From assembly GCA_032718475.1 (NCBI GenBank), contig JAUCBJ010007289.1, positions 124,001-188,000 on the forward strand: a stretch of 64,000 nt of DNA, read 5' to 3'. Under the pieces are notes generated by a model that saw nothing but the letters and a program-made list of their open reading frames with translations, had not been told where the DNA came from and made no database searches. The position numbers and the translations under genes were made by a program. This DNA is from Nemertoderma westbladi (taxonomy: Eukaryota; Animalia; Xenacoelomorpha). Of this stretch, positions 26,452-63,360 are shown piece by piece (position 1 is the first letter of the stretch; every line of letters starts with the position of its first letter).

Positions 26452-26555
26452 ATCGAACTCCTTTTATTCCAAACCGCCCAAAAACCTTAAGTGAGTACAT
26501 CGACCGTCTGGATGACCCCGCCCCAAAATCTCATAATGGCCATGACAAACCACAA

Positions 26556-27698: not shown

Positions 27699-27822
27699 AA
27701 CACAGCAGACGCCAACGCAAATAGAAAAATCCCTACAAAGCCTTCAGCAGAGACGAAGCTGCAAAAGACTCGCCCATGAGGCATACAAGCAACACATCCT
27801 AAGCTTAGCTGAAAACTGCAAA

Positions 27823-30122
27823 TTGTCACCCGAAAAATTCTGGAACACCTTAAAAGATGAGGAACAACAGTCGTCTAACATAGCCAACACAAACTCCGAC
27901 AACATATATCGCCACTATAAAGCCTTCTTCGAATCAGAGCGAAACAACAAAGAGGAAATAGACACAAACACACAACAACGCACACAAAACGCTAGTGAGC
28001 CCATCCAAAAGATCACCCCCACCAGGTCGACGAAGCAATAAAACTGCGGAGGACACCAAATCTCTGGATGGCACATTCATAAGAATGCTACGCCGGGTTC
28101 ATTGTGTCAAGTACAATGCACACATCTCCAACCAGACACTATATAACATTGGAGGTGTCTCATTGGTTCCCCCAAGCTTGACACTAGAACAAAATCGCCT
28201 CCGCTTTGCAGGACATTGCTTTCGCCGTGAGGACCAGCCAGTGAATAATCTTGTACTTTGACAGCCTCATGGAGTGAATAAGCATGGTGGACAGCCCATG
28301 ACTTTCTTGAGACGCATCTTAAAGGACACTGGCCTTAAAGATGCGGATGATCTAGCAAATGTCATGGGTGATAGGGAGTTGTGGCGGCGCAATTTTGTCG
28401 ACAAGCCGGCACAGCATTCTTAAAAATGCAGCTGCAATGCAGCATGCCGATCCTAGTAGTAAGCAATAAAATCTCTCAACAAACGTAAATCGGCCGACAT
28501 CAACAACCTATCTGCCGAACACCTCCTACACGGCAGAACAGTACCACTACTCACCCAATTCCTTGCAGACCTATACAACATGATGCAGTTAACCAATACT
28601 TTCCCTGACAACCTATGTACAAGTTTACTAATCCCACATCTGAAGGGAAATAACCGCAGTAAACATCACGCCGATAGCTACAGAGCGATATCTATTCTCT
28701 CCATTCTGGTAAAACTCTGGGAAACAATAGTCATGCCGCAATTCACAAAAGAAAAACCAAGTGACCTCCAGATGGCGTACAAAAAGGGTATCAGTAGTGA
28801 AATGACATATTCCATGTCAAACAGGCTCATTAAACGCTTCACCAATGGCGGATCTACCATTCACATGCTAGCAGAATTCATCACAGAACACTTTTCGAAA
28901 AGCTACAAAAAACAGACATTAACAAACGACTAATTAATCTACTGGAAGCATATTACCACAACTCAACCGCCCACATGAGAACAGGCAGAAGGGTGTACAC
29001 CGAACCTATCAAACTCGGCAAAGGAATACGGCAAGGAGGCATACTATCTGCCTGGCTCTTCAATTTCTACTTACAAGAAGACCTCTTCGAGACCCTAGGA
29101 GAATCTGGGCTAGTACTACATTTCGGCACAGAATCGTACCCGGCCCTTGGTTACGCCGACGACCTATTGTTGCTAGCAAACCTTAAGGATGATCTCCAAC
29201 AACAAATCGACATATGCACCACGTTCTTTGCCAGAAATGGCCTCACCATAAACACAAAAAAATCGCATTACGTAAGATGTACCGGTACGCAACCAAAAAC
29301 AACACCAATTGAAGGTACGCAACCACAAACAACACCAATTGAAGGCTACACCATACAAGTAGGATCAGTTTTCCTACACGAGGAGGCCAGCTGTAAATAC
29401 CTAGGTTTACCACTTCCAGGTACACCGCAAACGATCGAGACCACATAACCAAACGCTGCTGGTGGAACGTATCAAGGATGCGATCACGGGGCCTAACAGC
29501 CCACGACGTACCTCTACAAATCACCAAAAAAAACTGGAACACAATCTGCCTCCCGTCTATCGCATATGGTATTGCAAATGTGGATGACGCCTCTGTGACC
29601 AAACTATCAATAGTAATGCGAAAGGCAATGGGATCGATCATTGGCGTGGGGAACTACGTCACAAACAACACCCTACACAATCTGTTGCGATGCGACGACC
29701 TGGAATCAATCGTCGCACACAGCAGATGTAGACTCCTGTACAGCGCCGTCAACTCAGGAAACATAAAAATTGCACACCTCTACACAACACTGCTCAGCCA
29801 ACGCCTATGCGATACCTACACAGAACCAACTTTTGTCGAGTACTCCATTGCGAGTTGGAGGAGTAACCTACCCACCCTACACAGCATCGTAACAGCCTCC
29901 TACAACATAAAACTGGTGATCAAGGGCTCACGAAAACACTGCAAGCCCGTCCTGAGCACCAAGTACTGTTTCAACACGTGGTATCTCGAAAGTATCCTAA
30001 ATATTCCAAACGCAAACTACTCCATAAAGAACCAATGCATACGAGACTACTACAAACTGCCGACACTCGCGCGAACAACCAAACAGGTTTCACACGGACT
30101 CACGTTCAACTCCACCACATAA
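27823..30122 (+). pseudogene. LINE A ORF2 reverse transcriptase and C-terminus; frameshifted, interrupted and internally deleted
   Basis: Motifs EAIKSLNKRKS, SYRAISILSILVKLWE, LQMAYKKG, GIRQGGILSAWLF, YADDLLL, KYLG. The LDxxKAFD motif is absent near 28870. Confidence 0.9.
28044..28460 (+). mobile_element. 5'-truncated RTE-like LINE 3' fragment inserted into LINE A
   Basis: Encodes RLRFAGHCFRREDQPVNNLVL…RILKDTGL…MGDRELWRR and ends in a TAGTAGT tail. Flanked by an 11-bp TSD AAGCAATAAAA (28033-28043 and 28461-28471). Removing it restores host QVDEAIKSLNKRKSAD. Confidence 0.9.
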
Positions 30123-30808
30123 CAAGCACACAAATCACACGCATTTCCGATCATGACAAATACTATATGATTTCTTAATTCCCACCTCCCTATAGTCTAT
30201 AATTATATTCATTTGTTTTGGTGCATACAAACAACACTTGTGCCTTCAACAACCCTGTGTGTAATAGTCCTGTGTGTAATAGTTACACCCGTACACCTTA
30301 TAGACACTACCGTCAGACATCGTATACCCACTAATTATAATTAATTAACGGTAACATGTGACTACAGTGTAATGTAACCAATAGCATTGTTAATCTTAAT
30401 TTTGTCGATTGTGTTCTGTTCCGTTTTTACTTGACCGACCATTTTATACAATAATAGCCGACGGGGCCTCAAGCTGGTAATATAATAAAAAAAAAAAAAA
30501 AAAAAAATAGAGTAGTAAAGTGCTCCATACGAATCAAAATCAATGAAAAAGCACCAACATAGATAATTAAAACTTACAAATGACCTCTTAAAATTAGAAA
30601 ATTTCAAAAAAATTGTGTTGCTCTCGTGGACCAAATGTTGAGGTGGCACCAACATCGAAAAGTAGTCTAATTGCAACGCCGTTTTTTGCAAAAGATGCAC
30701 CATTAAATTTGACAAATTCTCGTAAAAAATTGGGAAGGTACATAATATAGTTGCATATTATAGGTACATCAATTAAAAACTAGGGGGGGGGGGGGGGGGG
30801 TGGGGGTG

Positions 30809-31915
30809 CAGCCCATGACTTTCTTGAAGGATGCAGGCATTGAGGATGCGGATGATCGAGCAAATGTCATGGACATGGGGGGTGGTTGGCGATGATAGTG
30901 GCAATTGTGGAATTGGTCTATTGATGAATCCAACTGCACATGCAGCATTGGACAAAATAGACCAAATCACTAACCGCATCATCCTTTGCCACTTCTCATG
31001 TTCTGGAAGACTTGCTAAGAAGATTCCTAAGGTGGTTCTGATTGTGTGCTACTCTCCAACTAGTGTTGCCCCTGTAGAGGAGGTGGAAAATTTCTACCTC
31101 AATCTACAAGCAGCTACTGATGGAGTGGATCAGCACGCATTCTTAACATTCCTGGGAGACTTTAATGCAAGTCTGCATCAATCACCTACATCGCCCTGGG
31201 TCTATAGCAATAGTGTTAACCGAAATTCCGTCCATCTTCAGGATTTTAACTCTGGAAATGGATTGTTTTCGGCTGTAACACAGTTCTAGAAGCGAACTTG
31301 AAAGCTATGGACTCATAGTGGACCCAGTGGTCACAAGTCCCAGATAGACCATATTCTGTTTCGTAGGAAATATAGGAGCTTTATACAAGACTGTAATGCA
31401 TTTACACTTCTACCCTTCTCCAGTGATCACCGCCTTATTGTGGCCAAGGTAAGACTTAGTCTGCGTGCTAGCAGAACAACGAAATCTGCCTTGCCGCGGC
31501 ATGACTGGTCCTCTCTGTTGCAACAGCCAAGTGTGAGATCCAGCTTCACACTACAGCTGAGCAACAGGTATGAGGTTCTTTTCTCTGAGGTGGCAGATCA
31601 CTGCGAGGGCTATACTGCCTTCACAGAAGCAGTTAAGTTAGCAGCTGAAGAAACAGTTCCTGTATACCCTCGTAACAGGACAATGGCCCCCTGGACTGAC
31701 AACAAAATTCAGAAGTCCGAAATGACCTCTATAAGGCGCAGAAAGAGTCCCGACTCAAACGGACTACAGCGGCCAAGAATGCAGTTAAGGCTGCATCTAG
31801 TTCCCTGAACAGGCAGTACTCTGTTAATCTATAGGAGCCAATAAACCAACAGGTTGATGCCATCAATGATGCTGACCACAGCAGGCAATCATCCTAGGCA
31901 TGGAAATCGATCAAC
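30809..31915 (+). mobile_element. RTE-like LINE fragment (endonuclease region), decayed
   Basis: Motifs GIGLLMN, RIILCHF, LIVCYSPT, EEVENFY, LGDFNAS, QIDHILF, SDHRLIVAK, LQLSNRYEVL, with internal stops. Confidence 0.85.
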
Positions 31916-32535: not shown

Positions 32536-33372
32536 AACACACTTTTGAGTCGTTCAAAGGAATAATAAAAGATTACAATAAGATGAACTTTATATTGCTA
32601 CGAAAAAATATCATATTTCAAAATTTGATAAGCTGCACTTTTTTTCCCTCAAGAGCCTTCGTCAATTTGTTTCATCAAAAATGATCCACTACTATAGCAA
32701 TAGCACTTCTAACCAGTAAATTATAAAGATGCCCTTTTGTACCCCTTTTGAGAATTTGGCTTTTAAAAATATTCATTAATTCACAAAAATGACATTTATC
32801 GTCACCCTGTTAGGGTGTTATTGCTGCTACTTGTAATTCATTACTGTGTACTGCCTGATCTCCCTAGCAGCCTTCCTAGATGACTCTATTAAGCCGAGCC
32901 TGAGCCGAGCCTACGTACATACGATAAGCAATTGATTCTGATTGGCTGGCCTATTATTTCGTGTAAGGGTAAGCCTTTCTTTAATTAATAAAAGGTTAAG
33001 TAAGACATTGGTGGTTGTGATAGATTAATAAGTGAACGAGAATAATTCGGCAAAGGAATAAAAATTCAATAAATTGAATGCGCTCGCTGACTGTAGCTGT
33101 TCGCTGGTTGTCTTAAATAATTGCATCAACAGCTTTGAAAACCTATAAATGCCGAAAATATGCGAGTTTAATGCAGTATAAAAACCCAGAATTCATTGAT
33201 TTTTATACTGTATGAAACTCGCAGGTTACAGTAGTGGCGGCTTCAACCCTAATTAAAACTGCCATGTCGTAAGTAACCCTAACCCTAAGTCATAATCTAA
33301 GATATTCCGCTAAATTTCTTAGAATATGACTTAGGGTTATTAAAAAAATTATAATTAATAATAATATATTAA

Positions 33373-33958
33373 TGTGACGGGATCGGAGGATCCCGACCAG
33401 TTTGGTTTATGTACGCGTCAGCCGCACCGTGTGATGGAAAAATAGAGTCTGTTGTTCCAGTGTTGTTAATAATATAAATATGGTATGCAATGTAGATACA
33501 ATAGCAGATAGCACAGTTTACCGGTATGTGTGATAATATAGTTGGTGACGGCGGTGATGGCGGTGACGGTCTTAAAATGTCAGCGTACTGCCATGACTGA
33601 GTGACTGAGTAAACTACTGAATGATATAACACCAACCGGTAATATACTACACTACCTTTGGCCGTGTTACTCAGCTGATGCCCTGCTGTCCCCCCATTGG
33701 CCGACAACCTAATTCTCGCCTTTTCTACTGCGGGAGTGTTTCCCCCCCCCCCCCCCCCCCCCGCTGCTGTTACTTTCCTTCTCCCCGGAGGTGTAACCTC
33801 TGACCTCCATTGTGTGAGGCCCTCTGGGGTTTGTCGTCCCCGTTTATTGGGGGTGATACAAGGTTGATTGGCAATCAACCTCGTACTCCCCAATATTGCT
33901 TAAAGGCGCTCTTTCCCACTTTATGGGGGTTGGTGAGGCGGAATTGAATCCGCTCACA
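33373..33958 (-). mobile_element. Solo LTR related to the LTR of the BEL/Pao element at 50156
   Basis: Minus strand TGTGAGCGGATTCAATTCCGCC…CCCCATAAAGT…TAAGCAATATTGGG…GATCCCGTCACA parallels 50156-50692 (TGTTAGCTTATTCAATCCCGCC…CCCCATAAAGT…TAAGCAATATTGGG…GATCCCGTCACA). Flanks ATTAA/ATTAC form a 5-bp TSD with one mismatch. Confidence 0.85.
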
Positions 33959-34743: not shown

Positions 34744-37394
34744 GATGCTCTTTGGATATCTATTGATAATAAAATGAAAATGTTGCTTCTAATCTTGCTT
34801 TCGATTACTATTAATGAATTCAACAAAATAAAAAGGCATAGTATGGTTTTATGGTTATAAAAAGTCTTTGAAGGGTGATGTATTTTGCGTAATTTTATAA
34901 ATTCCGAAAGGTGTTGGTATGGTATGGGTGCCAGGAATGCCTCATATCTCGAAAACTTACGGAGTTATTAAATTTTTATTTGCCTCATCTGAAATAGGAC
35001 ATAATTTTAGTTAGGGACAAGAACTTTCGATGCGCTAGACCTATTGTTTCAGGGGTTGTATCTAAGATAAATAACTGGCCCACTAAATTTAGGGGCTTTG
35101 CAGCAGCTTGGCGAAGTCTCTCCGTTACAAGTAAAATTTATTGATTTTTTTAGTTAATTTTATAATTTATATATTATTTTTATTTGACGAGGATAAAAAG
35201 CCAGGTTACAACACTTATGTAATACTTTAAAAAATGTCAAAATACAGTACATCAGTCTCAATTAAAACCAGATTTGGGAACTGTGAAAATATGACATCCC
35301 TTTGTAAATAAAATGAAATGCATTAGGGGTAATCCTTTTATCGGTCACACTTGGAAATATTTTCCTGTGCTCTGCCCTGCCTAGTGCCTAGCCTATATAT
35401 ATGAACGTAAAAACTCATTAACTTACCACCACATGTAACTATAATAACAGATAGCAGTAACAGCAGTAGCAGACAATAACAAATAGCAGTGACCCCAGAC
35501 TGCTTTCAGCTTCACTTAGTCTGTCTACAGGAGAATCGCTTCTACTCGTAAATGTTTACATGCCCCACGAGTGCCCAGATACTGTTGACCTATACATGGA
35601 GAATCTTGGAAAAATTCAAAGCCTATTGCAAACCTCTACTTATAATCATGTTTTAATATTGGGAGATTTTAATGCGGTCCGCATTTTAAATTTTACAAAT
35701 TGCTGTCAGAAATGTGCGATGAGGAGGGGCTGTCTGTACTTGATTCTGATATATTGCCTAATTCTACCTTCACATATATGAGTCTAACATATAACAGTGA
35801 GTCGTGGCTCGATCATTGTGTTGTCTCAAAAGACTTTGTCCATGCGATATCGGATATCTCCGTCTCTTACAACCTTTCAATTTTTGACCATATGCCGCTA
35901 TCTGTTACTATAAATAATGGTATTGAGAGTGAATCTACCAGCTGCGATAACATTCCACCGAGAGTGACAAAGATAAATAACAACCTCTTCAGGACAGATT
36001 GGTCGGTACTATCATCTTTGCAAAGAGAAACCTACTCGGCAAAATCAAAATGATTCTATTGCATGTAATAATGCAAAATGTAAAATTCACAACCTTGAGA
36101 AGATAAATTCTACATCCCGGGCTGGAATGACGTTGCTAAAGAAAAATACAAGCACTCGCGAGACCTCTTTCTCATATGGCGAGATATGGGTAGCCCGCGT
36201 AATGGGAGCCTACATAACCAACTCCTACAGGCGAAGGCTCAATTTAAGTTGGCTCTTCGAAATTGCAAAAACTCTGAAGATCAACTACGCTCTGATAAAC
36301 TGGCGCAGTCCCTACTCGATAACAAATCCAATGATTTCTGGAAAGACGTGAAATAGAAAACCAAAGCAAAAATATCGTCTCCACTCTCGATGGATAATAC
36401 AGTCGGTGCGCCATCAATATGTCACAAATGGGCAGAGACCTACAAATGTTTATTTAACTCTCAACCCAGATCCCCATCCAAACGTCTATCCAAAGCGGCG
36501 GCCCAGCTACTTTTCTGCATCGAAATGATAGTCTCTCCAGCTGAAACTGCTGATGCTATTCGCGAACTCTCGACCAACAAGGTCCTGACCACATTTTGGC
36601 AGAACATATTTTATATGCACCGCCCCGTCTACAAATTGACCTAAGTTTACTTTTTACCTGCTTTTTTACTCATGGTTTTTTACCCAGTGCTTTGGTGCAA
36701 TCAACAATTTTACCCGTTCTAAAAGATAGAAATGGTTTAGTTACAGATTCCACTAACTATAGGCCTGTTGCCTTATCTACAATTATTGGCAAACTTTTTG
36801 AAGTTTTTATTCTAATACGTATAAGCGACTCTCTGTTTACAACGCACTGTCAATTTGGTTATAAAAAGAAAATTGGAACAGAGTTGCGCATCTATTCGAT
36901 TAAAGAATTAATTAATTATTTTCTAACTAATGGATCCAACGTATATATTTGTTTTTTAGATGCCTCCAAGGCATTCGTTACCGTCTCACATTCTATTCTA
37001 TTTGATAAACTTTTAGATAGAGGAATACCTATTTAAATTTTCCGTATCATTGACTATTGGTACAGTAACCAATCAGTAGTGTCATTTGGGATGGATTTTT
37101 GTCTGACTCCCTCCAGGGCACTAATGGTGTCAGACAAGGAAGTATTTTAAGCCCTTACTTCTTTAACATATATACCAATGACCTAAGTGGGGCAACTATA
37201 TACTACATGTATAGGTGCAAGACTTAACCATTTATGTACAAATCATTTTATTTATGTGGATGACATCTGTCTCATATCCACCTCGCCTATAGCTCTACAA
37301 TCTCTATTAAATATTTGTGCTGATTTTACTTCACATAATAACCTGAAATTTAATGTCAAAAAATCTAAATGTTTGTTTTTGCATAGCCGTTTAA

Positions 37395-39682: not shown

Positions 39683-41869
39683 TGTTACGGTATATGGCGC
39701 TGTACCTACATTATGTAATATATTAGTCCGTTATACTGTACATATATTAGCCCATCATACAGTATAATATATTAGTCCATTATATAGTATCATATATTAG
39801 TCCGTGATGCAGTATAATTATTTAGATAAGGCATAATGCGCAATGATATTTAGATAAGGAAATTGAAACGCCCATATATTTTGAACTCATCCATTTTGTA
39901 TAGTATGTAGCCCTACCTATGTAATTTTGTAATAGGATATAAGTAGATAGTTCCAGGGTAGCAAGTTCTTGTTGGACCCTGGATATGGGCAAGCTGTTAT
40001 TAGCCTTGATGGGGCTAGCTAATGGTTTTAATTTTCTCTATAATTGCGCTAAATTAATATTTGTGCATGATATTATTAGTACCGCCAAATTAAGCATCGG
40101 GAAAATTACCTTTTATGGTGACAATTTGCGATTCCAGGGAGCAATAGGTTCACAATCCGGCTCTCTTATTGGCCTAACTGCTTCCAGGTTGGTCTAATGA
40201 TAGCTCGGATTGGGGAGCCAATGAGAGATCGATTGCATCACCCTTCTCAAATCACCTATAAATTGGCGTTTTGCCAGTGTGTCTGTACCCCACACTCCAC
40301 ACATGTACATGTCACCTTCACCTTCACCTTATCACTGTTCAACTATTATTCGATGCTTAGTTTTTCTGTGTAAATTACTGCCCTTTTGATTTTCTTGCAA
40401 TGATTTGCTAATTTGCAATTTCTGTTGATTCTTGTTTGTGTTTCTCAATCAATCCCAACGATTACTGTTAATTACAAATTGGAACTATGATTTCTACCCT
40501 TTAGTAAATGGTTCTATGTGATTCCTTTCGACAATAATCCTACGGGATTTCTTAGACTGTCAGACTTTGTGATTTGCATGTGCTGCTACGGTAGCTATTC
40601 ATTCTGATGGAGGGCTAGGGTACCGGTAAGCGCGACGGGCGCATTGGGGGGTTAGCGACGAAGGGAGTGCGGAGGATTCAAAGATGAGCAACATTGATGG
40701 GAGTACTATTGCGGGTGCAAGTTTGCAGTGTAGAGTGGGTCAGGTATGCCGGCGCAGTAATTAGGGGCTGATGATCCAGATTTTGTCTCTATTTTGTAGT
40801 ATTAGGGGGACAGGAAAAGGGTTAGTTAGGAAGCCTAGATGTAGCCGGGAGAGATCTGCATGCTTTACGTTGCGAGTTGTGAATTGCTATCTGACTGTTG
40901 ATTGTAAATTGTGCGTTAAGAACTAAAATTGGTGAGTATAAACTATAGATTGTTACTCTGATTGGTGTGTTACTAAAGTGTGCCTAATAAATCACGAATG
41001 CTTGGATAGGCGCTCTTTTCCCTTTGATTGATTTCTATTTCTTAGTTTACTGTAATTAATTACTGATTAGGTCGAAAATAATACGGTATTTTAGGCTGTT
41101 GCTAGTGTGACCCGTTGCGTAATAATTTAGAATTACGCACTCTGGAATACTTAGTAATTAGTAAGCCATTACATATTTGTGACTGTAATTATTTAGTAAA
41201 ATTAAGAATTTGTACGCAGCATAGCGGAGGGTAGTTAAGGTAATAAATTTAGAGTACCGTACACTATTCACGCTGGGCGGTTATTTGAATTAGCAGACAA
41301 AATTCACATCGTAGTATACAGTATATAGCGCGCATCAGTAAATTGCTGGTCTAAAGCCAGCCGCAGATAAGTTTGAGTCCCAAAATAAATGCTGCATCGA
41401 TTTTTGATTATTTTAAATATTCTCACATTCACACATTTCATTAGGGAACCCCAGTATTGCGATTAGATGCGATTAGATTAGATTAGAAAGGACGTAGTTG
41501 TAAACGCATTTTACAGTAAAATTAGGCCATAGGAATACACTCTGAGTGTCAAATCTCTCACACTCGTCTTAAGTCAGCTTAGGGAGCCGATTCGGGTTTA
41601 TTGTTTTGGTTATTCCCGCGTGGCTCATATATTCGAACAGTTAGCTCTCTATCGAGTAATTGGTAGAGAAAGGAACGAGAAATTAGCAGGAGCCGTAGAA
41701 AATTAGGAAATATATTAGCGGACGGCAGGTTAGCGCCATCCAACGGTGAGTAGCGGTTTTGTATTTAGCAGCCCTACATTAGCAATTATACGCTCCTGAT
41801 TGCCCAGTCTAGTAAATAGAGCAGTTTTGCGTCTTTATTGGTTATCTCCGGGGTAGTTTGTTCGTAACA
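39683..41869 (+). repeat. Putative 5' LTR of BEL/Pao element 1 (~2.2 kb)
   Basis: 7-bp terminal inverted repeat TGTTACG…CGTAACA. CCAAT near 40217, TATAAA at 40257, AATAAA near 40986. No second copy in the window to confirm the boundaries. Confidence 0.55.
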
Positions 41870-43002
41870 GTAAAGCATGTTTTGTTTTGCTGTACTGCGT
41901 ACAGTAAAGTACGAATTAGATCACTGAATTAGGTACTGTACAGCATACAGTAGAACATCGAGTGTATTCTTTAGGCTGTTAGTTTAGATTACTATATTCA
42001 CTGGTCGCATACAATAGTACAGTAGTACATTAGGCTGATTGCTGTTACTGCGTACAGTAGAAAATACATTTGTTTTGCTGTACCGCACACAGTATTCAAC
42101 ATAGGTTGTTAGGTTGGTGTACTGTTTTACTTACTGTATTGCGTACAGTGGATATACGGTAGTGCGTTTACTAATCGCAAATACAGCGGTTCCTTAGGCC
42201 GTTAGGGCAGGCCGTAATTAGTAAGTTTTTTGAAAATTTTAGCTAGGTTTGTGAGAATTCAGTTTTGGTCAAAATTATTTGTAATAAAATCTAGAGTTTT
42301 GTACCGGTATGTTAGGTAACCGCTTAGTTATTTTATACCATCTGGAGATACATGGCAAGACGGAGCTTCTGAGTTTGGGGTTCGTGTGGGTCTGCGGGTT
42401 CGGTTTGCAATCAGCGAAAAGACTGAAACTTTAGACGCGGACGTGGAATCTCACAGAAAACAAGGTTAGTTGTTCTGTTGGCACCATTGTGTTTGTGGAA
42501 GCAGTAAAAAATTACCAGTTGTTTAACTGCGAAGCTGAACTCAATTTATTAGTTAGGATAGTTAGGTTTAGCCGACCATGGGTTTTTGAATCGCTCGAGT
42601 TAGAGAGAGAGAGAGTCGCAACCCGAAGATGTAGCCATGCGCTAGTGGATACATATAATATTTGAAATTAAAATTGCGTTGATTAGAGTTATATATGTAA
42701 ATTTAGAAATATTTGGGTGGCAAGTTTATTTTGAATATTTTGTATTAGATTCAAAAAATTATTTGTGTCATACCGGTATTTAAATACTATATAATAACTA
42801 TAAAATAATATTTGTTTAAATATTGTACTAGTATTTGCTAAAATTAGATCCTATTAAATTCACAATATTGCATTGCGAATTTATTTTGACATTTTGGACA
42901 ATTAGATATTTGACAAATAATTTAATTGTATTTTCGATTAAATTATATATATATCTCGAATTTTTGCGAGATTTTTGCTGGAAGGCAAATATTATTTAGA
43001 CT

Positions 43003-50155: not shown

Positions 50156-50692
50156 TGTTAGCTTATTCAATCCCGCCAACACCCCATAAAGTTATTAGCC
50201 GATAAGCAATATTGGGAGCCACGAGATTGGGTAATTAACCAACTCGCGCCATCCCAATAAGAATGGGAAGGAAGCACACAATAGAGGGTCAGGGGCCAAA
50301 CCCCTAACCCAAGGAGAACAAGTGGAGTGAACGGGAATACTCCACGGGGCGCCAACAAGGGTATTAACCAATCAGAGGGGGGAATGGCATCGATTGAGTA
50401 GCAGTAAGGCCACCGTGCAATATAACCAATAACCTACTAATCAGTGATTCAGTTATCTCAGTGCAGCAGTGCTAGCGTAGGGTACAGCCAATTAGTTTAG
50501 TTAGGGGATCACGGGACTTTAGTTACCGTATCCCGCCTTGTACACATTCACAACATATCTATATCTTATAACCTCCTATTATACACCGAACTTCAGAACT
50601 CAATTATCTTTACTTCACCCTTACACACGGCGGGGACGCGTGGACTAAATACCACACCGGATAAATCGGGATCCCTCCTGGATCCCGTCACA
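50156..50692 (+). repeat. 5' LTR of BEL/Pao element 2 (537 bp)
   Basis: TGT…ACA ends, boundaries confirmed by the homologous solo LTR at 33373-33958. TATAA near 50421 followed by TCAGT initiator-like motifs. Confidence 0.85.
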
Positions 50693-50777
50693 GTAACTAA
50701 AACCAAGCTGCCGCCCTAGTTAAACTCTAAGAACTACCGGTACAACCTAGCTAGCCGAATCATCAGCCACAAACGAG

Positions 50778-53700
50778 ATGAGTGAATCGGGCGAGACACC
50801 GACGCGGACCCCGGACGAAGACCTAACGATCCGCGAGGCCGCGACCAAGCGATACAGGCCCACGACGCCGGAGCCATCGATAACGGGCGAACCGGAAGTC
50901 CAGGACGAGGAGGGCCTGGAACCCGAAGTCGAGCCAAGAGAGAGAGAGAGCGAGACGGAGGGAGAGGGAGATGAGTCGACACGGAACGGAGAACGGCGCG
51001 CCGATGTCGCCGGCCAGCTACCGGCCGAGGGCGACGAGCGGCCCACCGAAACGGCGACGGTGGGGCCGACGGTGCGACGCCGGACACGAAGAGACGGAGG
51101 AGAGATCGGTACCGATGTCGCCGGCCAGCTACAGGCCGAGGGCGACGGACGGCCCACCGGAACGGCGACGGTGGAGCCGCCGGTACGACGTCGAACCCGG
51201 AGGGACGGAGGAGAGGTCGGCGACGAGGACGTCGGGGTTTCTGACCGACTTCGACAGGCCTACAACGCGACCCGGAAGCTGATAAACGACGCCAAGAAGG
51301 AAGGGGCGAAGATAGACGAGGTGAGACTGAGAAAGCGACTAGGTGAGTCGGATAGACACTTAAATTACCTGATACGTTTTGGGCAGAGAGAACTAGCCGG
51401 GGAGAGAGCAAATGGAATTGCAGGCGAACTGTTTGAACTATGGGAGTGTGGGAGTATGGGACCTAGCGTAGCACCAGTGTACATAGGGCCATACTTGGTC
51501 GATGCCCGGGGAGTGAAACCAGTGGGTTGGAAGGGACCTGAAGAGGGCGAATCCGAGGTTAACACCGAGGATTCGGCCTCGTCGGTCGGAGAAAGCTCCG
51601 AAAAGGGGGAGAAAGTTAGTAGGTCGGGAAGGCGGGGGAAGTCCGTCGTAACCGATAAGTCTGCTACATCCTCCGCGAAAGAAAGAGCGGTGAGAAAAAT
51701 AGGGGCCACATACCGTCTCAGCATGGCAGAGCAAGGTCAGAGAGAAATGAAGGAACGGCTAGAGGAGGGAAGAGTGCGGTTAGAGAGGGAAACGGTATTG
51801 CTTAGAGAAACCGGAGAAAGGGCCGAAAGGGCTTTGAAAAGCCTAAGGGAGTATGATGAGATAGAGGAAAGGGAGTGTAGAGAGCGTGAAGCGAGAGAGG
51901 AAAAGGAACGCGAGGAGCGTGAAGCGAGAGAGGAAAAGGAACGCGAGGAGCGTGAGGCGAGAATGGAAAAGGAACGCAAGGAGCGTGAGGCGGAACGCAA
52001 GGAGCGTGAGGCGGAACGCGAGGAGCGTGAAGCGAGAGAGGAAAAGGAACGCGAGGAGCGTGAGGCGAGAATGGAAAAGGAACGCAAGGAGCGCGAGGCG
52101 GAACGCAAGGAGCGTGAGGCGGAACGCAAGGAGCGTGAGGCGGGAATGGAAAAGGAACGCAAGGAGCGTGAGGCGGGAAAGGAAAAGGAACGCAAGGAGC
52201 GTGAGGCGAGAAAGGAAGAGGAACGTAAAGAGCGTGGGGCGAGACGAAGGGAGAGCATTAAGAGTGCCGCAGACTCGGCCATCAAGGACACCCAGGAGCG
52301 TGAGGGGATAGTGGCAAAGGGTGAAAAGGAGCACAAGGAATTAAAGGAACGGCAGAGTGAGTATGCGAAAAATATAATTAGAGGGACGCACGAGTTGGAA
52401 TACGTGCGAGTGGGACCGCCGTCTGAAACTGGGGCCCGCTCGAGTATTTTTGAGGAGCCGAGGGCCGTAGACGTATTTGTTAATACTCCACTGACAGGGA
52501 CCGCACGACAGACTCAAGACTGGTGCGACCGTACGAGCGGGGGGGGGGTAATAATAATAATAATGGTACAGTAGACGTTGTTAATATTAATAGTACCGTA
52601 TGGGATAACGCTAATCAAACCTTTATTACAGGAAATACTTTGCCTGGTGGTAGTAATTTAAATTTAAATCAGAACGATCCCAGTGTTAATGTAGAAAATA
52701 ATCCTAATATTGATGTAGTTACGCAAAATAATTCAAATAATCAAAATAATAACTCGAATTCGGACCTACAAAATAACTTAAATAACGCAATTACACAGAA
52801 TAATTCGAATAATTCAAATAATGATCTTAGCCCGAATTTACAAAATAATTCAGATAACGTAGTCGCGCAGAATAATACAAATGATTTTATTTCAAATGAG
52901 CAAATTAGTTCCGTTTCCAATATGGGTGCTATTAATGTAAATACGTCTGGCCTACATAGTAGACAGGTTAGTAGACAGGGAGCAGAGGGCCTGGTAGGCC
53001 ACGTAGTTAGTAGACAGGGAGCAGAGGGCCTGGTAGGCCACGTAGTTAGTAGACAGGAAGCAGAGGGCCTGGTAGGCCACGTAGTTAGTAGACAGGGAGC
53101 AGAGGGCCTGGTAGGCCACGTAGTTGGTAGGCAGGGAGTAGAGGGTCCAGTAGGCCACGCAATAGCAGAGGGAGAGGCGAGGGTGAATAGACCCGACTGT
53201 GGTAGGGTTGATGTGTCGACTAGAGAGATATATAGTAGCGGGGCGAGAGGTAGCGAAGTTAGATGTAGCGAGTGGGGGGGGGGGCTACGAGCACCCCACA
53301 ACAGAAAGTTAGCGGCGAGAAGGGGGGGGCAGAGAGTGTCCCACAGCCGTCAGCGGACAATGCGAGGGCCGAACAAGGTAAACCGCAACAACCGGCGACG
53401 GAAAGTAATAGGGGGATTGCGAGTATCCCCAGCGACGTGCGATCGAGCAGAGAAAGACAGGTTGACGTCGCGGGAGGGCAGACGGAGCGTCGAGCCCGAT
53501 CAGAGGAGGAAAGAAGAACAGTGGGGTTTAACCGGGAGGTCGACGAGAGATCTCGTGAGCGGGAATATTCCACTGATAGAAGAAGAGAGGAAGAGAGTAG
53601 TAGAAGTATCGCCGCAAAAGATAGAAGAGCGAGGACAGACAGCGAGCCGTCGGTAGTCGAGATGAGAACGGAGAGTCAGTGGGGTCGGACTCCGGGAGAT

Positions 53701-56700
53701 TGCCGTCGCCCCGGAGGGATGCGATCCGATGAGACGCATTACACGCCGAGAGAGGGGTACGCGATGTACCGGTACGAAGATGAAAACGGTGGAGAGGGGG
53801 GTCGAAGAGAAACTTTCCGACGGAATATACCTACCGATCGAGAATACGGTAGCCGCAGGGAGGATTGTTCGAGAAGAATAAACTTCGATCCCGAGCAACA
53901 CATGCAGACTGTGGGGCATACTGTAGGTCTTACTGCACATACCGTAGGCCATACTGAGAGAGGCGATGTAGGCGATAGGATAGCGCGGACAACGGGATTA
54001 AACCCGGAAGTCGCGGAATACATACCGGCGGGTAGGCCAGAAGCTGATAGGCCTATACCGGTACCAGCACAGCAGTATGACTACAGCATGCAGGGACATA
54101 ACATATACCCAGGGGAGGGGGGAATTATTGCGGATAGGTGTATGGGCCCCAACATACTAACATCAACCCCAGTACCAGACATACCGGTGGGGGGGGGACA
54201 GGGTGACATTCCCCCATCACAATATCAACAATATACCCCGACAGGAACAAGAACAACGAGACCCCTAGATGAAAACAGGTCGTGTGATACAGACATATGG
54301 AGGGGGCCGCTACCCCCGATGACATATCCGAGTCAGAGAAGATCAAGAAATAGGACGGACGAACCGCACCAGACAAGGGAAACTATACAGCACCCGTCGA
54401 ATCCATTAGAAGCGCAGGCAATGGGGATGGCCACGTTGATCGATGCGTTGAAAACGAGGATCGAATTACCACCCGTGGAACCGTTCAAATTCGATGGGAG
54501 CAGGCCGGAAGAATACTTACAGTTTCGGCGAATGTATAGTAACGAAATACTAACAAAAAACTTGACGCAGGCAGAGTGCCTAAAGTATCTACAAGTGTAC
54601 ATGGGAGGCCCAGCATACGATATCGTGAGGCAATACCAGGGAATAGAGGGCGGCTTCACGACAGCATGGCGGGCACTGGATAGGGAATACGGGCACCCGG
54701 CCAAGATCATCAGGCAGACGCTGAGAGGCATAACATCGGGTGGCCTACAGGATAATCCCGTTAGCATTAAGACGTTTGCTAACAAAGTCGAGAAGGCGCT
54801 GATCGTGCTGAAGACGCTAGACGCGCCATATGAACTCAACGCGTCCAATAACATCACCACGATAGCGCAGGCACTACCGAGCTGGCTGCGCAACAAATGG
54901 AGGAAGATCGCTTTCTCCACCCGAGACAAAAAGGGTGCGGAACCAGGTTTAGAAGAAATGTCAAACTTCTTAAATTACGAGGCTGAACTAATAACGGACC
55001 CAGTTTATAGTGAAGATAGCCTGGGAAAGGGACCAAAGACAGATCATTACAGGCCCAAACCAGAGCACAATACATCGAACGCGTTACCGAGACTCAGGCA
55101 ATCATTGCCATATGCAGCGACGCAGGGGACTGCAAGTCCACAGACAAGCGAAGATAAGACAACATCAAGGGACGGACAGGGGAGCAATAACAACATGAAT
55201 AAACATAACCCCAGTACGTCCAGTAGGTCAAACCCAGTCAATAAGAATAGTAGGGACTTTGGTACGAATATAACTGCGATACGCAATGCATTATATAAAG
55301 AGGGCTACGACCCAAAGAGCAAATGCCAGTTACACGCAAATGCGCTTCATAAAACCATGAACTGCAGGTACTGGCAGGCGCTACCGAGGCAAGACCAGAT
55401 AGATTACGCGTCGAGCAATAAAATCTGCTCGCGATGTGTGAAGAGTGGACACAAGGCCAGGGAATGCCAAGAGAAACCGGTCAAGTTTGGCCAAAGGAGA
55501 GGCCAGACGATGGCAACGAGCACAGTAGGGGCGAAGAAGAGAGGAACAGTGCTACTTGGAGTAGTACCAGTACGAGTGATCGGGGAAGGCAATCGATCAG
55601 TAACAACACTAATGCTGGTTGATGGTGGAGCTGCCTTCACATTAGTTGAGGAATGGGTAGCCGAAGAAATAGGGTTGAGAACGAGGCCAAGCAGGATGGC
55701 GGTGACAACCATCTCTAGTAAAGACGAGATCCTAGAGATGAGGACAGGACGGTGCGCAATTGCAGCAGTGGCACCAGGATGCGATTATGGGGCAACCATC
55801 GACCCCATCCAAGTAATAGAGTCAATTAACATCAATGCCAGGCGGCCAACCAACATCGAGGTCGAGCAATACAAATTCCTGGATAACATTGACTTCTCAA
55901 TCCCAAACGTGGACGTTAGGAAGGTATCCATCATAGTAGGCATGGACTGCCCAACGGCCCACGAGAGAATGCAAACGGTCTTCGGCGAAGACAAGCAGAG
56001 CGACCCGGTGGCCATATTAACGCCATTCGGGTGGACGCTGAGTGGTCCAATTAAGAGCAAGATACCATTCAGGATGTCGGAGACATCAGGATGCATGTTC
56101 GCGGGAACAATGCAGGAAATGGGTGACGAGGGAGCAGAGGAGCAGCTTAAAAGACTGCTCAGACAGGACTTCGAGGGACTGAAAGAGACCGGGGTCGGGA
56201 CCTCGGTAGAAGACAAGCAGGCTTTACAAAGTGTGGAGGAATCGATGACGTGTGATGAGGGGCGGTATACAATAGGAATGGTGTGGAAACTACCGAAGAT
56301 ACCGCTACCCGATAATAGAGGGATGGTACTCACGAGACTCCGCAAGCTGAAACAAACACTACAACGGAGCCCCGAGAAGAACGAGTACATTCACAAAACC
56401 ATTAAGAAGTACGTCGAGAAAGGATGGGCCGTGGAGTTACCGGTCGACGAACCGAACACGGACAGGACATACTACCTGCCACTCCACGTAGCTTTAGACC
56501 CAAAGAAAGGTAAACTTAGGATGGTAGTCGATGCATCGGCAAAGACCGACGGAAAGTGCTTAAACGATTACCTACTAGAGGGCCCAAACATATACAATTC
56601 GGGCATAGAAGTACTACTTAGATTTAGGAATGGGAAACACGCCTTCACGTGTGACATAGAAGGCATGTTCAACCAAGTCCGAGTAACAGAGGAAGATAGC

Positions 56701-59529
56701 GATAGTCAACGCTTCTTATGGTATAACGGCGAAGAAGAACCGCCTATAATACCGGCATATAAGATGGTAGTACAAAACATGGGGGCCAAGTCGTCCTCAT
56801 TTACGACGACTATGGCAGTGAGAGACACGGTAAAGGGGAAGGAGGATAGATATAGCAGTAGGGCCGTCGATATGATCAGACGCGGTTTCTACGTAGACGA
56901 CGGCATGGAGTCTGGAAATACGGTTGAGGAGATACTGGAAACAGGGCGCGAGGTTCGCGACATCCTGAAAGGATCCGGCTTCAACCTGACCAAATTCCAA
57001 TCCAGTTCAGAAGAATTTATCAGGGAAATAGAAGACAAGAAACCAGAATCGACCATGGACAACCCTACAACAGCCAAAGGACAGGACATGGCGATTAAGA
57101 GAACGGAATCCCAGCAGAAGGCGTTGGGAATCGTGTGGGATAGAAAAACAGACGAACTGAAGTATCAGCTGAGCCAGGAGGGCGCAGACACCCATACGAA
57201 GAGGGGTTACGTATCGTATATAGCAAGGATATACGATCCCTTAGGCCTAGCATCCCCATTACTAGTCACGGGGAAACAGATACTCAAGAGAGTATATAAG
57301 TTGAAGGATGAGTGGGACGTAGAGGTACCAGAAGACATCAAGAAACAGTGGAGCAAATGGACAGGAGACTTGGAGAGGATGGGAACATACAACATGCCGC
57401 GAGTGTATTTCCCGGACGGGAACATGACGAATCTGGACCTACATATGTTCTCCGACGCGTCGTTAGAGGCATACGGAGCGGCACTCTATTTAGTACAACG
57501 AGAGGGGCCTCACAAGCCCAGATTAGCCTTTAGCAAAGCTAAGTCAACGCCGCCAGATTCAGCATCTGTTCCCAAGTTAGAATTGACAGCTGCGAGACTA
57601 GGAGTTAGAGCCACAGCCTACCTAGTGGATACAATTCCCAACATAGTGGAGACACACTACTGGACGGACTCCATGGTAGTGCTTGGTTGGCTACACAACG
57701 AAAAGACGAGGTACCCGATATTCGTCGCGAATAGAGTGGACGAAATAAGGGCGAGCACAGAACTGGAAAGGTGGCACTACTGCCCAACAGACGAGAACCC
57801 AGCGGACTTGCTGTCGAGGGGCGTGGAACGCCACACTTTCTTAAAGAAAGAAGCATTGTGGCAACACGGGCCACAATTTCTGAGCGATAGGGAGGCCTGG
57901 CCGCCGATGAGGAAGGTGGACCCGGGCTCGGAAGTAGTATCAGAAGGAGAAGAGGGAGATTCAGAGGGAGAAGAGATATACTCCCAGATGGTGAGGGAGA
58001 TCAGGGACGTGCAACCAGGAAGGGAACTGTGCGATAACCCGACGGATAAACTCCTCAGCTACAGTTCTAGTTGGTATAAGACCAAGAAACTAGTGGCGTA
58101 CTGGAGAGCCTTTGGGAATTTCCTTGCGGGAGTCGGCAAGGACAAGAAGACCAGGACAACCATAGATCTGGAAGGAGCGGCCAAGGCAGTGATCCGCTAT
58201 GAACAACGCAAGAACTACGGCGACGAGGTGGAACGTGTCGGTAACCAACAACATCTCCGACGGGATAGCGAGTTGATCACGCTGTCGCCACAACTCAACG
58301 AGGATGGGATCCTAGTAATGAATTCTAGGGTGGGATATAACAACAGTATAGTCGTGCCACCGAAACCCATCATCATTCCCACAGGATCGCCTATAGTCCA
58401 CCAGATCATATGGGACTCCCACAAATCGATACTGCATGGGGGCACCAACCGAACCCTCACAGAGATAAGGAGGACCTATTGGGTCAAACAATTAAGGAAG
58501 AAGGTGAAAGCGGTAGTGGGACAGTGTCAGACCTGCCGACGAGCGAAGAAGGAGCGAGCCGTACAGGAGATGGCGCCACTACCGGCGAGTAGGGTAAGAC
58601 AGCACGACCCGCCATTTACGCATTGCGGTGTGGACATGTTCGGGCCGATAAAGATCAAGGTGATGCGACACACGGAGAAACGCTACGGTATTATCTTCGT
58701 ATGCAACAATACGCGGGCGGTAGGGATAGAACTCGCCCAAGATGCAACCGCATCAGCTTTCATTAACGCCTTAGAAAGGTTTAGGGACCGCAAAGGTGGG
58801 ACGATCGCAGTGATATACAGCGACAACGGCACCAACTTTGTGGGCGCAGAGAATGAGATGGCAGAGGCCTTAGACATCTTGGAGGGAGAAGAAGTCAGGG
58901 CGGCCATGAGAAGACGACAAGTGAAGTGGGAGAGAAGGACGCCGTATGCACCACATACATTAGGATGCGTCGAGAGACTCGTGGGCAGTTCAAAACGTCT
59001 AATGACGAAGTTGATGAACACCCACATGGTCACTGAAGACGTCTTACGGACAGTACTTGCGAACTGCGAGGGGATCATTAATAGCAGACCGCTATACCCG
59101 GAGAATGATGACCCTGAGTCATTAGACGTGTTGACGCCTAGCCATTTCCTGATGGAAAGGCCAGCGACCATAGATATGCGGGGTGTAGACCCAGATGATA
59201 TACACTCCCGCCAAAGTTGGAAAGTAGCTAAAGCAATTAGCGCAGAGTATTGGAGGAGGTGGGTAGAAGAATACCTGCCCATGCTCCATAAGCGAAGCAA
59301 GTGGAGGAAGCCAAACAGGGAGTTGAGAGAGGGAGATCTCGTAATCGTCACGGATGATACTATCATCAACAACCAATGGCGGTTGGCGAGAGTTGTAGGC
59401 ACCTACTCCGACGAGGACGGAAGAGTCCGATCGGTAGAAGTGCGGATAGGTGGAAAGATAGGTGCGAAAGACAGAAAAACCTACAGGAGAGCAGTAGGTA
59501 AATGCTGTCTTCTAGAAGGGGCACCTTAA
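50778..59529 (+). CDS. BEL/Pao element 2 gag-pol polyprotein (~2900 aa if two poly-G frameshifts are corrected)
   Basis: ORFs 50778-52574, 52523-53656 and 53272-59529 overlap at G10 (52539-52548) and G11 (53274-53284). Motifs PFKFDG, CSRC…H…C, LVDGGA, YYLPLH, VVDAS, DIEGMF, FYVDD, FSDAS, KLELTAA, WTDS, NPADLLSRG, HHCC, VDMFGP, SDNGTNF, CVERLV are intact. Confidence 0.93.
51875..52240 (+). repeat. Coding tandem repeats (EREAREEKERE / EREAERK) in the gag N-terminus
   Basis: 21- and 33-bp units GAGCGTGAGGCG…GAACGC encoding a charged helix. Confidence 0.85.
52966..53160 (+). repeat. 39-bp coding tandem repeat (VSRQGAEGLVGHV, ~5 copies)
   Basis: GTTAGTAGACAGGGAGCAGAGGGCCTGGTAGGCCACGTA repeated. 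Confidence 0.9.
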
Positions 59530-59639: not shown

Positions 59640-60320
59640 AAGTTAGTTAGTTAGTAGGTACGTAGTACCTAGAGTTAGTTAGTTAGTAGGTACGTAGTAG
59701 CTAGAGTTAGTTAGTTGATAGGTACGTAGTACCTAGAGTTAGTTAGTTAGTAGGTACGTAGTACCTAGAGTTAGTTAGTTGATAGGTACGTAGTACCTAG
59801 AGTTAGTTAGTTAGTAGGTACGTAGTACCTAGAGTTAGTTAGTAGGTACGTAGTACCTAGTTAGAGTTAGAGTTAGAGGGTACGTAGTACCTAGTTAGAG
59901 TTAGAGGGTACGTAATGCCTAGTTAGAGTTAGAGTTAGAGGGTAGGTAGTACCGATAGAGTTAGAGTTAGTAGGTACGTAGTACCTAGGTAGAGTTAGAG
60001 TTAGAGGGTACGTAGTACCGATAATTAGAGAGTTAGTAGGTACGTAGTACCTAGTTAGAGTTAGAGTTAGAGGGTACGTAATGCCTAGTTAGAGTTAGAG
60101 GGTAGGTAGTACCGATAGAGTTAGAGTTAGTAGGTACGTGGTACCTAGTTAGAGTTAGAGTTAGAGGGTACGTAGTACCGATAGTTAGAGAGTTAGTAGG
60201 TACGTAGTACCTAGTTAGAGTTAGAGTTAGAGGGTACGTAGTACCGATAGTTAGAGAGTTAGTAGGTACGTAGTACCTAGTTAGAGTTAGAGTTAGAGGG
60301 TACGTAGTACCATTAGTTAG
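59640..60320. repeat. Tandem array of ~20 units of ~28-34 bp with palindromic core GGTAC-GTA-GTACC and AGTT/AGAGTT linkers
   Basis: Seen directly between the pol stop and the accessory ORF. Confidence 0.95.
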
Positions 60321-60825
60321 AAAGAGAGAGTAAGAGGTAAAAGGGGTAAAAATAGGATATAGATATTAGATAGCAGTAAGTAGAGTTAGTAGCGAGAGGG
60401 GGGCATATGAGTGCAGCTGGATAAATCGTGTGGCCACACGACGCATACTGCTGTACTGCATAGGCCCACTGAGTAGGCCAGAATATGGATCAGAGAGAGA
60501 ATAGAATAAATCCATAGGCAGTAGTAAGTAGTAGGACAGTAGAATCAAAGCAAAATAAATAAATAAATAGAATAGGGCTAAAATCGGAAAATAGTGGTAA
60601 CACAAGGAAAGTCGTTCTAGAACATAATAAAAGTAACGGACGGAAATTGTAAATTAGGCTGGTTTACTAGCTCCGAAATTAATTAGATTAAATTAAGCTT
60701 GAAAGGCGCAGTTAAGTAGAAAAGTAGGCCATTATCGAACTGTAGGAAACATCTTAGTACATCACTCATCTGTATTGCGCCTTGGTAAGGCACCACCCTA
60801 CAGGTGAGCGAGTGTAGTGTTCGGA

Positions 60826-63360
60826 ATGGCGAGTAAGCTGATCAGGAAGAGAAAAGCGGAGTCAGGAGGAAAAGAAATATTGGTGGATTTCACCGAAAGA
60901 CACCCGGAGGAGAAGACGAGAGGATACTACGAGAGGTTGGAAAGGGGTCACGCGACACGAGCGCTGCAGGATCACTTCCGGGAGGCGCACGAACAGCGGT
61001 TGGTCGGGACCTACGGGACGCCGTCGCTGGACAACGCGATCTTCCAACACTTCCACTACGTAGTGAAAGGAGACGAGGCGAAGTTCGGGATTCCGAAGTA
61101 TCCGAGGTAATCGCCGAGGAAGGACTGGAAAAGATTCATAGAGTCCGTCAACAGAGGAGGATATATGATCCTAGATGACGAGGGAACCGTGGAAGACGAA
61201 GCGGGTTCGAGACGAGGAACGGCAGGGTCGGCCAGGACCATACTCTTGCATTTGGCTGCGCCAAATGGGGACATCTTCTTATTCGACCTAGGGACGTATG
61301 GGAAGAAGGACGGGCCGAAATTAGACCGACTGCCGAAAGCGGTACAGGTCTTAGTAAGAGAGAAGTCGACGACGAAAGTGGGATCGGCGATTCGCGAGGA
61401 CGCGGAGAGGATCATCGGTCCGGACGCCACCAACCTCCTGGATATGCAGAAAGTCTTTATGGCTATGACGGCACCGGATGGATTGGGGGTGGTCGAGAAC
61501 TCAGGCCAATGCGGGGCGGTGGCGATGGGCCAATTATTGGGGCTCGTATGCCACAAACCAATGGATTGGGGGAAGTTTAGGGAAGAATACGGAGCAGAAC
61601 TAGCGAACTCGCTGAAGTGGGGAGCGAGACCGGGAAAGCAGGAGGTATATCAGTTTCGCAGAGGAGCGATAAAGGTATATCAGAAGCGATATATCCTGCA
61701 GGAGGACTGGATGATGATAAGTTTACTTAACTTATTCATGACCGTAGTTATCGAAAGAGAACCAGGGGCATTTCTGTTATCGGGATCACCCCTAAGCTAC
61801 AGGAGAGCCTTTAAGATGGCCTTTGACGGTCTGGTAGACCACCCGGGGCTGAAGGGCGAGTCGGTGTACTACAACAGCCGACATCTGGTAGATGGGGAGA
61901 CGGATACACCGTATCTGAGATGGGAGCAGCTAGAGATGGATAGACGGGAAGCAAAGCGACTGGAAGAAGTCGCTAGACGGGAGAGGATAGAAGCAGAGGA
62001 GAGGGAAGAGGAGGCCAGGACACAGAGTTATGGCTTCGAGGAACAGGCGGGTCTAGACGAACTTCATTGGACTTCGTCAGGGAGTTCGGGGGAGTCTCTA
62101 GGGCGAGAATTGGGATGGACGGTGGGATCGCCGAAACAGTCGACGTCGGGGTTGCAAACGATGCCCATACCAGCGGGCGCCGAGGGCGACCAACCGCCAA
62201 GGAAGCTAAGGGAGCTAGAGGGATGGAGAGCTACGGGCGAAAGCCAAGGCGGGAAGGGACATAGTGGATCCATCGGGATACCGGGGTTGGAGACACTACC
62301 AGAAGAGGAAGACGACGACGACGAGTTCGGAGAGATGCCGCCCATCGAGAGGATAGGCCACTCGGACACGGACTGGGTTGGCGGAAGGGTGGTGACGGCC
62401 AGTGGGGCGAGGGCCTTCTGGAACAGATCCGGCAAGCGGACCTGGGTGCACGAGGGGCCGGCGATGGATTTCGCGGGGAGCACCATCAGGTTGGGCGAGC
62501 AACCGGGGACGGCACCACGGATAGTATTCGGGGAGACGATGCCCGAGAGGGGCGGAGAGATAGACGTAAACAGGGAGAGCAACGTAGAGAAGTTCGCCTA
62601 CCAGCGACTCCATAGACCGCGGAGATCGCTTGGGACGAAGGACGAGGTGGGACGCGAGACATTGGTACTCGGCTGCGACTACTGTGGGAGACAGACCCAT
62701 CAGGAAAGCAGCTGCCTATACCGGTTCCAACGGGGAACCTTTTGTCTCTATTGTAGAGAACCAAGTCACAGGATGGGGGCGTGTCCACGGTTGCATAACC
62801 GATGTCCAAAGTGCCACTTTCGGGGACACTACGGACGCGAGTGCGACTGGATGAGCGACGAGGAGAAGTTCACGAGGTTCGAGGAGTGGGCCGACGTCGG
62901 GGCCATGACGCGCCAGCGCATGAAGGCCCAAGAGTTCAAGTGGGGTTTCTTCCTCATAAACCAGGAGACCCACATGGAAATCATAAAGCGAAGGTTACCG
63001 TTTACCTATCAAGAGGTAGCTACGGCGGCATCGTTCGCCGGAGTTATGAACACGCAACGGTACCTGGACAGGTGGACACCAGAGAACCGGAGGGAGTTTA
63101 GGGATTTCTTGGCGGAACACGTACCAAAGGCAATGAAGATGATCCTATGGGACGCCACACGAGGGAAACAACCAGGCCATTCTGAGGGGCCACCGGCGAA
63201 GCGGTATCGGGCTTTAATAACACCAGCGCCCAAGGAGCCGACGACCGGGATCAGCAAGGAAGTGGCAGCGAAGGTCCGGAAGCAGAAAGCGGATGATGCC
63301 AGAGGAGCGGTGATAACCAAGAAACGGGCCAGGGAGGAGGACGTGAGGAGGTACAGATGA
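60826..63360 (+). CDS. Accessory ORF: DEDDy (WRN/EXD/Mut-7-like) 3'-5' exonuclease domain, acidic linker, three CCHC zinc knuckles; one in-frame TAA at 61108-61110
   Basis: GYMILDDEG (Exo I DxE), TILLHLAAPNGDIFLFDL, LPKAVQVLVREKSTTKVGSAIREDAERI (Exo II), LLDMQ, LLGLVCHKP, KWGARP…QKRYILQED (Exo III-like). Knuckles CDYCGRQTHQESSC, CLYCREPSHRMGAC, CPKCHFRGHYGREC. The 97-aa and 731-aa ORFs share one frame. Confidence 0.75.

Follow-up and report, generated by a model that had tools for sequence, protein, structure and literature searches.

Candidate self-priming of a BEL/Pao retrotransposon by RNA from its own LTR

Element 2 is a BEL/Pao LTR retrotransposon in which the nine nucleotides directly after the 5' LTR, where a tRNA primer-binding site would be sought, are exactly complementary to a stretch within the same LTR. 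Analysis of the element together with its relatives makes it probable, at roughly three chances in four, that element 2 primes its reverse transcription in a Tf1-like manner, with an internal primer taken from its own LTR RNA by a cut after position 50526, in place of a tRNA. The feature is real, and it would represent self-priming in a new form, within a superfamily that has been described as tRNA-primed. Element 2 itself is a modest example; the strength of the argument comes from the relatives.

The two elements and their primer-site positions

The window, that is, the whole 64-kb stretch of DNA that was analysed, contains ~24 kb of 27/31-nt satellite, LINE remains and two nested BEL/Pao retrotransposons, here called elements 1 and 2 (Table 1). 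The satellite (positions 1-24000) consists of alternating 27- and 31-nt units with a GC content of ~0.23 and a strong AT skew. Broken LINE-type elements, which match endonuclease and RT, lie at 25155-31808 and 36554-37036, and two ~60-nt palindromes (33161-33223 and 33280-33339) adjoin a solo LTR. A search for tRNA genes across the 64-kb window found none. The 3' LTRs of elements 1 and 2 were sought within the window and neither was found, that of element 2 being absent up to position 64000.

Table 1. Features of elements 1 and 2 and of the related solo LTR, in window coordinates
Feature	Position	Strand	Remark
Solo LTR, family related to element 2	33373-33958	minus	73% over aligned positions; 5-bp flanks alike at 4/5
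Element 1 5' LTR, 2187 bp, 7-bp terminal inverted repeats	39683-41869	+	longer than the 0.2-1.2 kb given by ICTV
Element 1 in-LTR complement, 10 nt	40859-40868	+	pairing goes on into the LTR end past a bulged A
Element 1 primer-site position, non-tRNA, 10 nt	41870-41879	+	complementary to 40859-40868
Element 2 5' LTR, 537 bp, TG...CA	50156-50692	+	sits in the DUF5641-coding end of element 1
Element 2 putative promoter	50420-50462	+	TATA-like hexamer at 50420; TCAGT initiator-like motifs at 50441, 50449 and 50458
Element 2 5' arm of predicted 13-bp helix enclosing the site duplex	50494-50506	+	mean pair probability 0.91
Element 2 local hairpin, predicted alternative fold	50505-50534	+	exclusive with the site duplex
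Element 2 GGGA motif just 5' of the complement	50513-50516	+	common to 8/25 other families
Element 2 in-LTR complement TTTAGTTAC, candidate 3' end of the self-primer	50518-50526	+	exact 9-nt complement
Element 2 primer-binding-site position, non-tRNA, 9 nt, GTAACTAAA	50693-50701	+	directly after the LTR end
Element 2 3' arm of predicted 13-bp helix	50714-50726	+	partner of 50494-50506
Element 2 gag-side upstream coding region	50751-53656	+	two overlapping frames, without Pfam match
Element 2 uninterrupted 2086-aa frame	53269-59529	+	DUF1759, protease, RT (YVDD), Peptidase_A17, integrase, DUF5641

The assignment of element 2 to BEL/Pao follows its domains (DUF1759, Peptidase_A17 and DUF5641) and their order (protease-RT-RNase H-integrase). 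Its closest proteins are metazoan BEL/Pao polyproteins with 32-38% identity; PF05380 is present in all 120 matches listed, and among these the named best matches come from various animals. The 18-nt host-tRNA site that belongs to the ICTV description was not found in element 2, as judged by the absence of TGG within the first 10 nt after the LTR end. Downstream of pol, tandem repeats of ~30-66 nt lie at 59641-60337 in the 3' UTR and are followed by an inverted repeat (60401-60467). A 749-aa frame with three Cys/His knuckle-like motifs then occupies 61111-63360 (+ strand) and may be cargo of element 2; its N-terminal part gave an Atlas lead to 3'-5' exonucleases (PF01612, score 0.92). The frame was considered as a primer-trimming nuclease and rejected, as it yielded no homologue, no Pfam or PDB match and an unusable model (pLDDT 37), which leaves the Atlas lead only.

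The LTR end at 50692 is backed by other contigs from four public runs, which pass the same terminal motif into unrelated flanks, and by the depth of the contigs of these four runs, which drops steeply past ~50690-50700. The original prediction had regarded this end as confirmed by the solo LTR. The end itself holds, but the solo LTR is a relative identical at 359 of 489 aligned positions which has the terminal motif in common with element 2 and lacks the complement (longest match 5 nt). Contigs of public runs also showed that the element 2 family is high-copy, with an LTR depth far above the internal depth.

The LTR-terminal 9-mer, the non-TGG site and its exact complement were all found at the coordinates first given for them. 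When start positions 50685-50701 were compared, the longest complement (9 nt) began at 50693, which agrees with the earlier observation that the complement meets the LTR boundary exactly. The terminal A had been described as unpaired, with pairing resuming for 2 nt, and indeed a C-A mismatch followed by two pairs was seen beyond the junction. Dinucleotide shuffles of the element 2 LTR reached 9 nt at offset 0 in 2 of 1000 cases, and in 5 of 1000 when a looser search admitted offsets 0-6 and spliced joins. An intron was looked for inside the LTR of element 2 and none was found. Counting element 2, 9 of 26 families have the GGGA motif, which was first spotted by eye, 5' of the complement, versus a background of 1.8%.

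These data bear on the reading that the 9-nt match of element 2 is a product of chance or a decayed relic, even if its relatives self-prime. The duplex is short and AU-rich, element 2 sits on a long branch, and a longer match to its site (12 nt) was found in one foreign LTR than in its own (33-row run, cross mean 6.7). Nevertheless, the rarity of 9-nt matches among shuffles, the position, AC end and upstream GGGA that are the same as in distant families, the lack of an alternative TGG site, the uninterrupted pol frame and the high copy number make this explanation very improbable.

Copies of element 2 were also compared. A related subfamily in the host runs follows element 2 as far as the last paired base (50701) and diverges from there on. 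Host subfamilies have the LTR end in common (50623-50701) and diverge after 2, 3, 5, 6 or 9 nt of the site; the LTR partners of these diverging subfamilies should differ in step with the site. For element 2 copies, 18 substitution rows are listed in 50539-50666, whereas 50496-50538 and 50667-50701 have none; the table misses the common change at 50705 and is thus insensitive near its edges. Copy invariance of the site was therefore not counted as evidence. No compensatory pair was seen in the substitution rows of this edge-insensitive table.

In element 1 the 10-nt complement lies 1 kb inside the LTR, and its length was reached by 1 of 400 shuffles in the strict search and by 5 of 400 in the looser one. 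Past the junction the terminal A forms a bulge, after which pairing continues for 8 more pairs, two to at most three of which are G-U counting wobble. The two elements had been credited with the same geometry; a complement at the LTR edge is found in both, but the pairing is not identical, with a bulge and 8 pairs in one and a mismatch and two pairs in the other. An LTR intron was sought in element 1 and none was found. Several motifs in the element 1 LTR resemble donors, and an AATAAA follows the complement at a distance of 117 nt. The element 1 pol region is broken into several frames and aligns to element 2 only from residue 1196 on, with 26-33% identity, which is no closer than that of element 2 to general BEL/Pao proteins. 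Element 2 had been put forward as an independent second case. The two elements are separate families, and no claim is made here about their origins.

Predicted leader fold and proposed priming route

The element 2 leader was folded from a putative start at 50451, near which sequence motifs place the likely transcription start. In this fold the site duplex is predicted with a probability of ~0.85, within the 13-bp outer helix. The original prediction had placed the complement in a hairpin. This hairpin exists when the segment is folded alone (-13.7 kcal/mol), but it is predicted to exclude the duplex, and its probability in the folded leader is ~0. Within a set of 13 families the element 2 duplex is the shortest (9 bp, -7.3 kcal/mol), and a fold in which it is disallowed is just 3.9 kcal/mol less stable. 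A second long-range pairing, between 50505-50516 and 50676-50686 (-18.9 kcal/mol), would cross the site duplex as a pseudoknot and is unconserved in the relatives.

The TATA-like motif of element 2 lies at -98 relative to the complement; when 26 families were searched for a TATA box 25-35 nt upstream, just one had it (at -31). The primer would thus probably be internal, a 5' fragment of ~75 nt instead of the first few nucleotides of the RNA. In the proposed route the leader would fold so that 50518-50526 pairs with 50693-50701 inside the outer helix, and the RNA would be cut just after 50526, probably by the RNase H of the element, by analogy with Tf1. The resulting 3' OH, at an end in AC, would be extended into U5, again as in Tf1; synthesis of the strong-stop DNA would stop at the cut, and the product would be transferred to the 3' copy of R. 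AATAAA and ATTAAA were sought downstream of the complement inside the element 2 LTR and none was found, so that the R overlap needed for strand transfer is putative in element 2.

Own-LTR complementarity and putative LTR introns in the relatives

Relatives were collected by a metagenome scan in which 596 stretches matched, 466 were confirmed and 80 loci were kept, giving 65 families at 80% nucleotide identity. Because many of the scan contigs may share a host, families and not hosts were taken as the unit of counting. Two scans of viral contigs for relatives found none. Thirteen loci have two LTR copies that run into different sequence, and 11 of these constitute Set A. The remaining two, L079 and L040, were left out for ambiguous ends and are both positive when the ends are placed by eye; the LTR end of L076 was corrected by eye and afterwards confirmed.

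In Set A, 9 of 11 families have a stretch of 10-12 nt that is complementary to their own site, at 0-4 nt from the LTR edge; it is contiguous in 3 of them and is obtained in 6 only across a GT-AG intron. Both negative families are of the TGG/tRNA type, with 4 nt each. For the 9 positives, per-family shuffles gave 0-14 of 1000. When sites and LTRs were swapped among 13 families (Set A plus elements 1 and 2), the own pairings gave a trace of 127, and 0 of 100,000 permutations were as high; off the diagonal the mean was 6.0, with 10 or more in 3 of 156 cells. The original prediction had proposed a survey of relatives against shuffled controls and had favoured covariation over chance. In the survey, own complements exceed nearly all shuffles, and none of the 100,000 permutations made swapped pairings as good as the own ones, which supports that view. 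Blind end-picking by terminal inverted repeats found 3 positives among 20 further loci; most of these blind LTR-end picks were judged wrong, in a judgement that was itself not blind.

A wider set was also assembled, in which the donor pattern was widened after seeing cases, offsets up to 9 were allowed and ends were placed mostly by eye, so that its count is descriptive: a complement of at least 9 nt is present in 33 of 43 families, in spliced form in 20 and contiguous in 13. The complement ends in AC in 29 of these 33 and lies 0-6 nt from the LTR edge in 32. The 10 negatives are L001, L005, L014, L016, L024, L034, L037, L049, L060 and L067, several of which hold a partial LTR only. All three families with a TGG site lack the complement. 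The primer sites differ widely in sequence among families, each tracking its own LTR, and so no single host RNA can serve all of them.

The pairing might instead serve regulation or packaging, as a structure by which the leader is hidden or presented, with priming by an unnamed host RNA or tRNA fragment. The prevalence of AC ends would suit such a role, and half-tRNA priming is known in copia lineages (available text of PMC6317226). A structure of this kind is nonetheless an unlikely account of sites that vary so widely and yet track their own LTR, of a complement that is absent in the three TGG families, and of its confinement to 0-6 nt from the LTR edge in all but one of the wider-set positives.

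In 6 of the 9 positive Set A families the full complement would arise only if a GT-AG intron of ~76-185 nt, recognised by its sequence, were removed from within the LTR. In these split families 5-7 nt after the acceptor and 4-6 nt before the donor make up the complement. Canonical donors occur 1-4 times among 221-420 upstream positions; in extension such a donor ranks best or tied for best in 5 of the 6 families and third in the other. L063 and L071 carry the intron in both of their LTRs, and L071 has a 5-bp target duplication. With a genomic RNA spliced at the 5' end, a primer from outside would lead the strong-stop DNA to copy the junction and erase the intron, and a cut just downstream of the junction would avoid the erasure. 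A spliced packaged 5' end with the intron kept would accordingly be expected only if the strong-stop DNA stops before the junction. The longest case is L056 (83-89 and 6346-6354), where two LTR pieces provide a 16-nt complement made of 9 nt before the donor and 7 nt after the acceptor. In L025, L038, L049, L064, L067 and L080 the complement begins right after an acceptor-like AG; a matching donor was not found, often in a partial LTR, and five of these six families cluster in the tree.

The self-priming idea of the original prediction is supported by this survey, but the intron-split complements of many relatives were not visible to it. The same primer end would in many relatives be put together by splicing out the LTR intron, and elements 1 and 2 would be intron-less forms of the system. 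We regard as somewhat favoured, with less confidence than the reading for element 2 itself, the general proposition that a large share of BEL/Pao elements do without a tRNA and use an internal self-primer, often made of LTR exons joined by the spliceosome, that splicing licenses reverse transcription, and that the intron is re-copied from the unspliced 3' LTR, elements 1 and 2 being intron-less.

The primer might also be element RNA acting in trans, as short LTR transcripts (from solo LTRs or early termination, and spliced where there is an intron) trimmed to the AC end and annealed to a separate genomic RNA. This would account for the same covariation and for the survival of the intron in both LTRs, and the high copy number and excess LTR depth of the element 2 family would suit it. 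The duplex is, however, predicted in cis, supported by the outer helix in element 2 and extended into the LTR end in element 1, and Tf1, the one characterised precedent, cleaves its primer off the 5' end of its own transcript (available text of PMC7175516). Priming in trans thus has perhaps a slim chance of being correct, and a self-primer cut from the same RNA is preferred.

A tree of 65 rows was built with FastTree and rooted at the midpoint; L057 and L077 were left out because of low coverage. The three TGG families form one group with a support of 97. Self-complementary families fall on both sides of the midpoint root, which indicates that the trait is broad in the sampled tree. Elements 1 and 2 were joined on long branches with a warning, and hence no claim of a clade or of an origin is made for them. 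The original prediction of a self-priming BEL/Pao clade is therefore modified: self-priming is the best reading of the sequences, but the trait spans the sampled tree and does not mark a small clade.

Comparison with known self-priming and tRNA-primed elements

In the ICTV description of Belpaoviridae (genus Semotivirus), genomes measure 4.2-10 kb and LTRs 0.2-1.2 kb, host tRNA-Arg or tRNA-Gly binds at an 18-nt site, and replication is said to be primed by host tRNA and to be poorly understood (PMC8742986). No discussion of priming was found in the available text of the BEL/Pao papers PMC3118150, PMC554778 and PMC6238403, and self-priming in BEL/Pao is not described in that of PMC5445492, PMC3601003, PMC6934838, PMC13524379 and PMC3286476. 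No report of BEL/Pao self-priming was found in the literature covered, which lay outside subscription journals and repeat-database reports.

If the proposed reading is true, self-priming would reach a third LTR superfamily, where it would concern much of the diversity sampled, in a form unlike Tf1, with an internal primer that is often made by splicing. Control by host splicing would be tied directly to the start of reverse transcription, and the target site for tRNA fragments would be removed. The nematode element Cer7 has reportedly been proposed to carry its own tRNA-like primer.

Self-priming has been described for Tf1/sushi (available text of PMC6317226, PMC7175516 and 10.1101/2022.12.06.519325). 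The Tf1 primer consists of the first 11 bases of its RNA, released by an RNase H cut between bases 11 and 12 (PMC7175516, available text), and a three-duplex 'pretzel' has been described for it (10.1101/2022.12.06.519325, available text). Element 2 resembles Tf1 and Tf2 of Schizosaccharomyces pombe, and Tf1/sushi in general, in the absence of a tRNA site and in a site that pairs over ~9-12 nt with RNA derived from its own LTR. It differs from the Tf1/sushi elements, which are Ty3/gypsy chromoviruses, in having BEL/Pao domains and no chromodomain match. Unlike in Tf1, the complement is probably internal, as the position of the TATA-like motif suggests, and not within the first ~11 nt, and in many BEL/Pao relatives it spans a splice junction. 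Moreover, the three-duplex pretzel is not conserved among the relatives surveyed: for flanking duplexes of the Tf1 type own pairings were no better than swapped ones (7468 and 19324 of 20000 permutations as low), and four tests for conserved flanking duplexes gave at best 305 of 20000, which is unconvincing after correction.

Outside Tf1 itself, self-priming has been predicted from sequence for Tcn1 chromoviruses and for the TAR lineage of plant Ty1/copia elements (Houba, Osr-1), and in this respect the BEL/Pao elements studied here are similar; those are plant or fungal copia and gypsy elements, however, and no spliced primer is mentioned for them in the available text (PMC6317226). The fungal GalEa copia elements likewise have the tRNA site replaced by an element-internal pairing, the 'conserved hairpin site', but its partner lies downstream of the LTR, and according to the authors there is no complement in the LTR (available text of PMC5445492), whereas the partner found here is upstream, inside the LTR, and oriented to prime. 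Finally, the elements agree with the ICTV Belpaoviridae in their protein domains, domain order and, as far as the 5' LTRs show it, LTR architecture, and depart from them in the lack of a tRNA site and in the length of the element 1 LTR, which is 2.2 kb versus 0.2-1.2 kb (PMC8742986).
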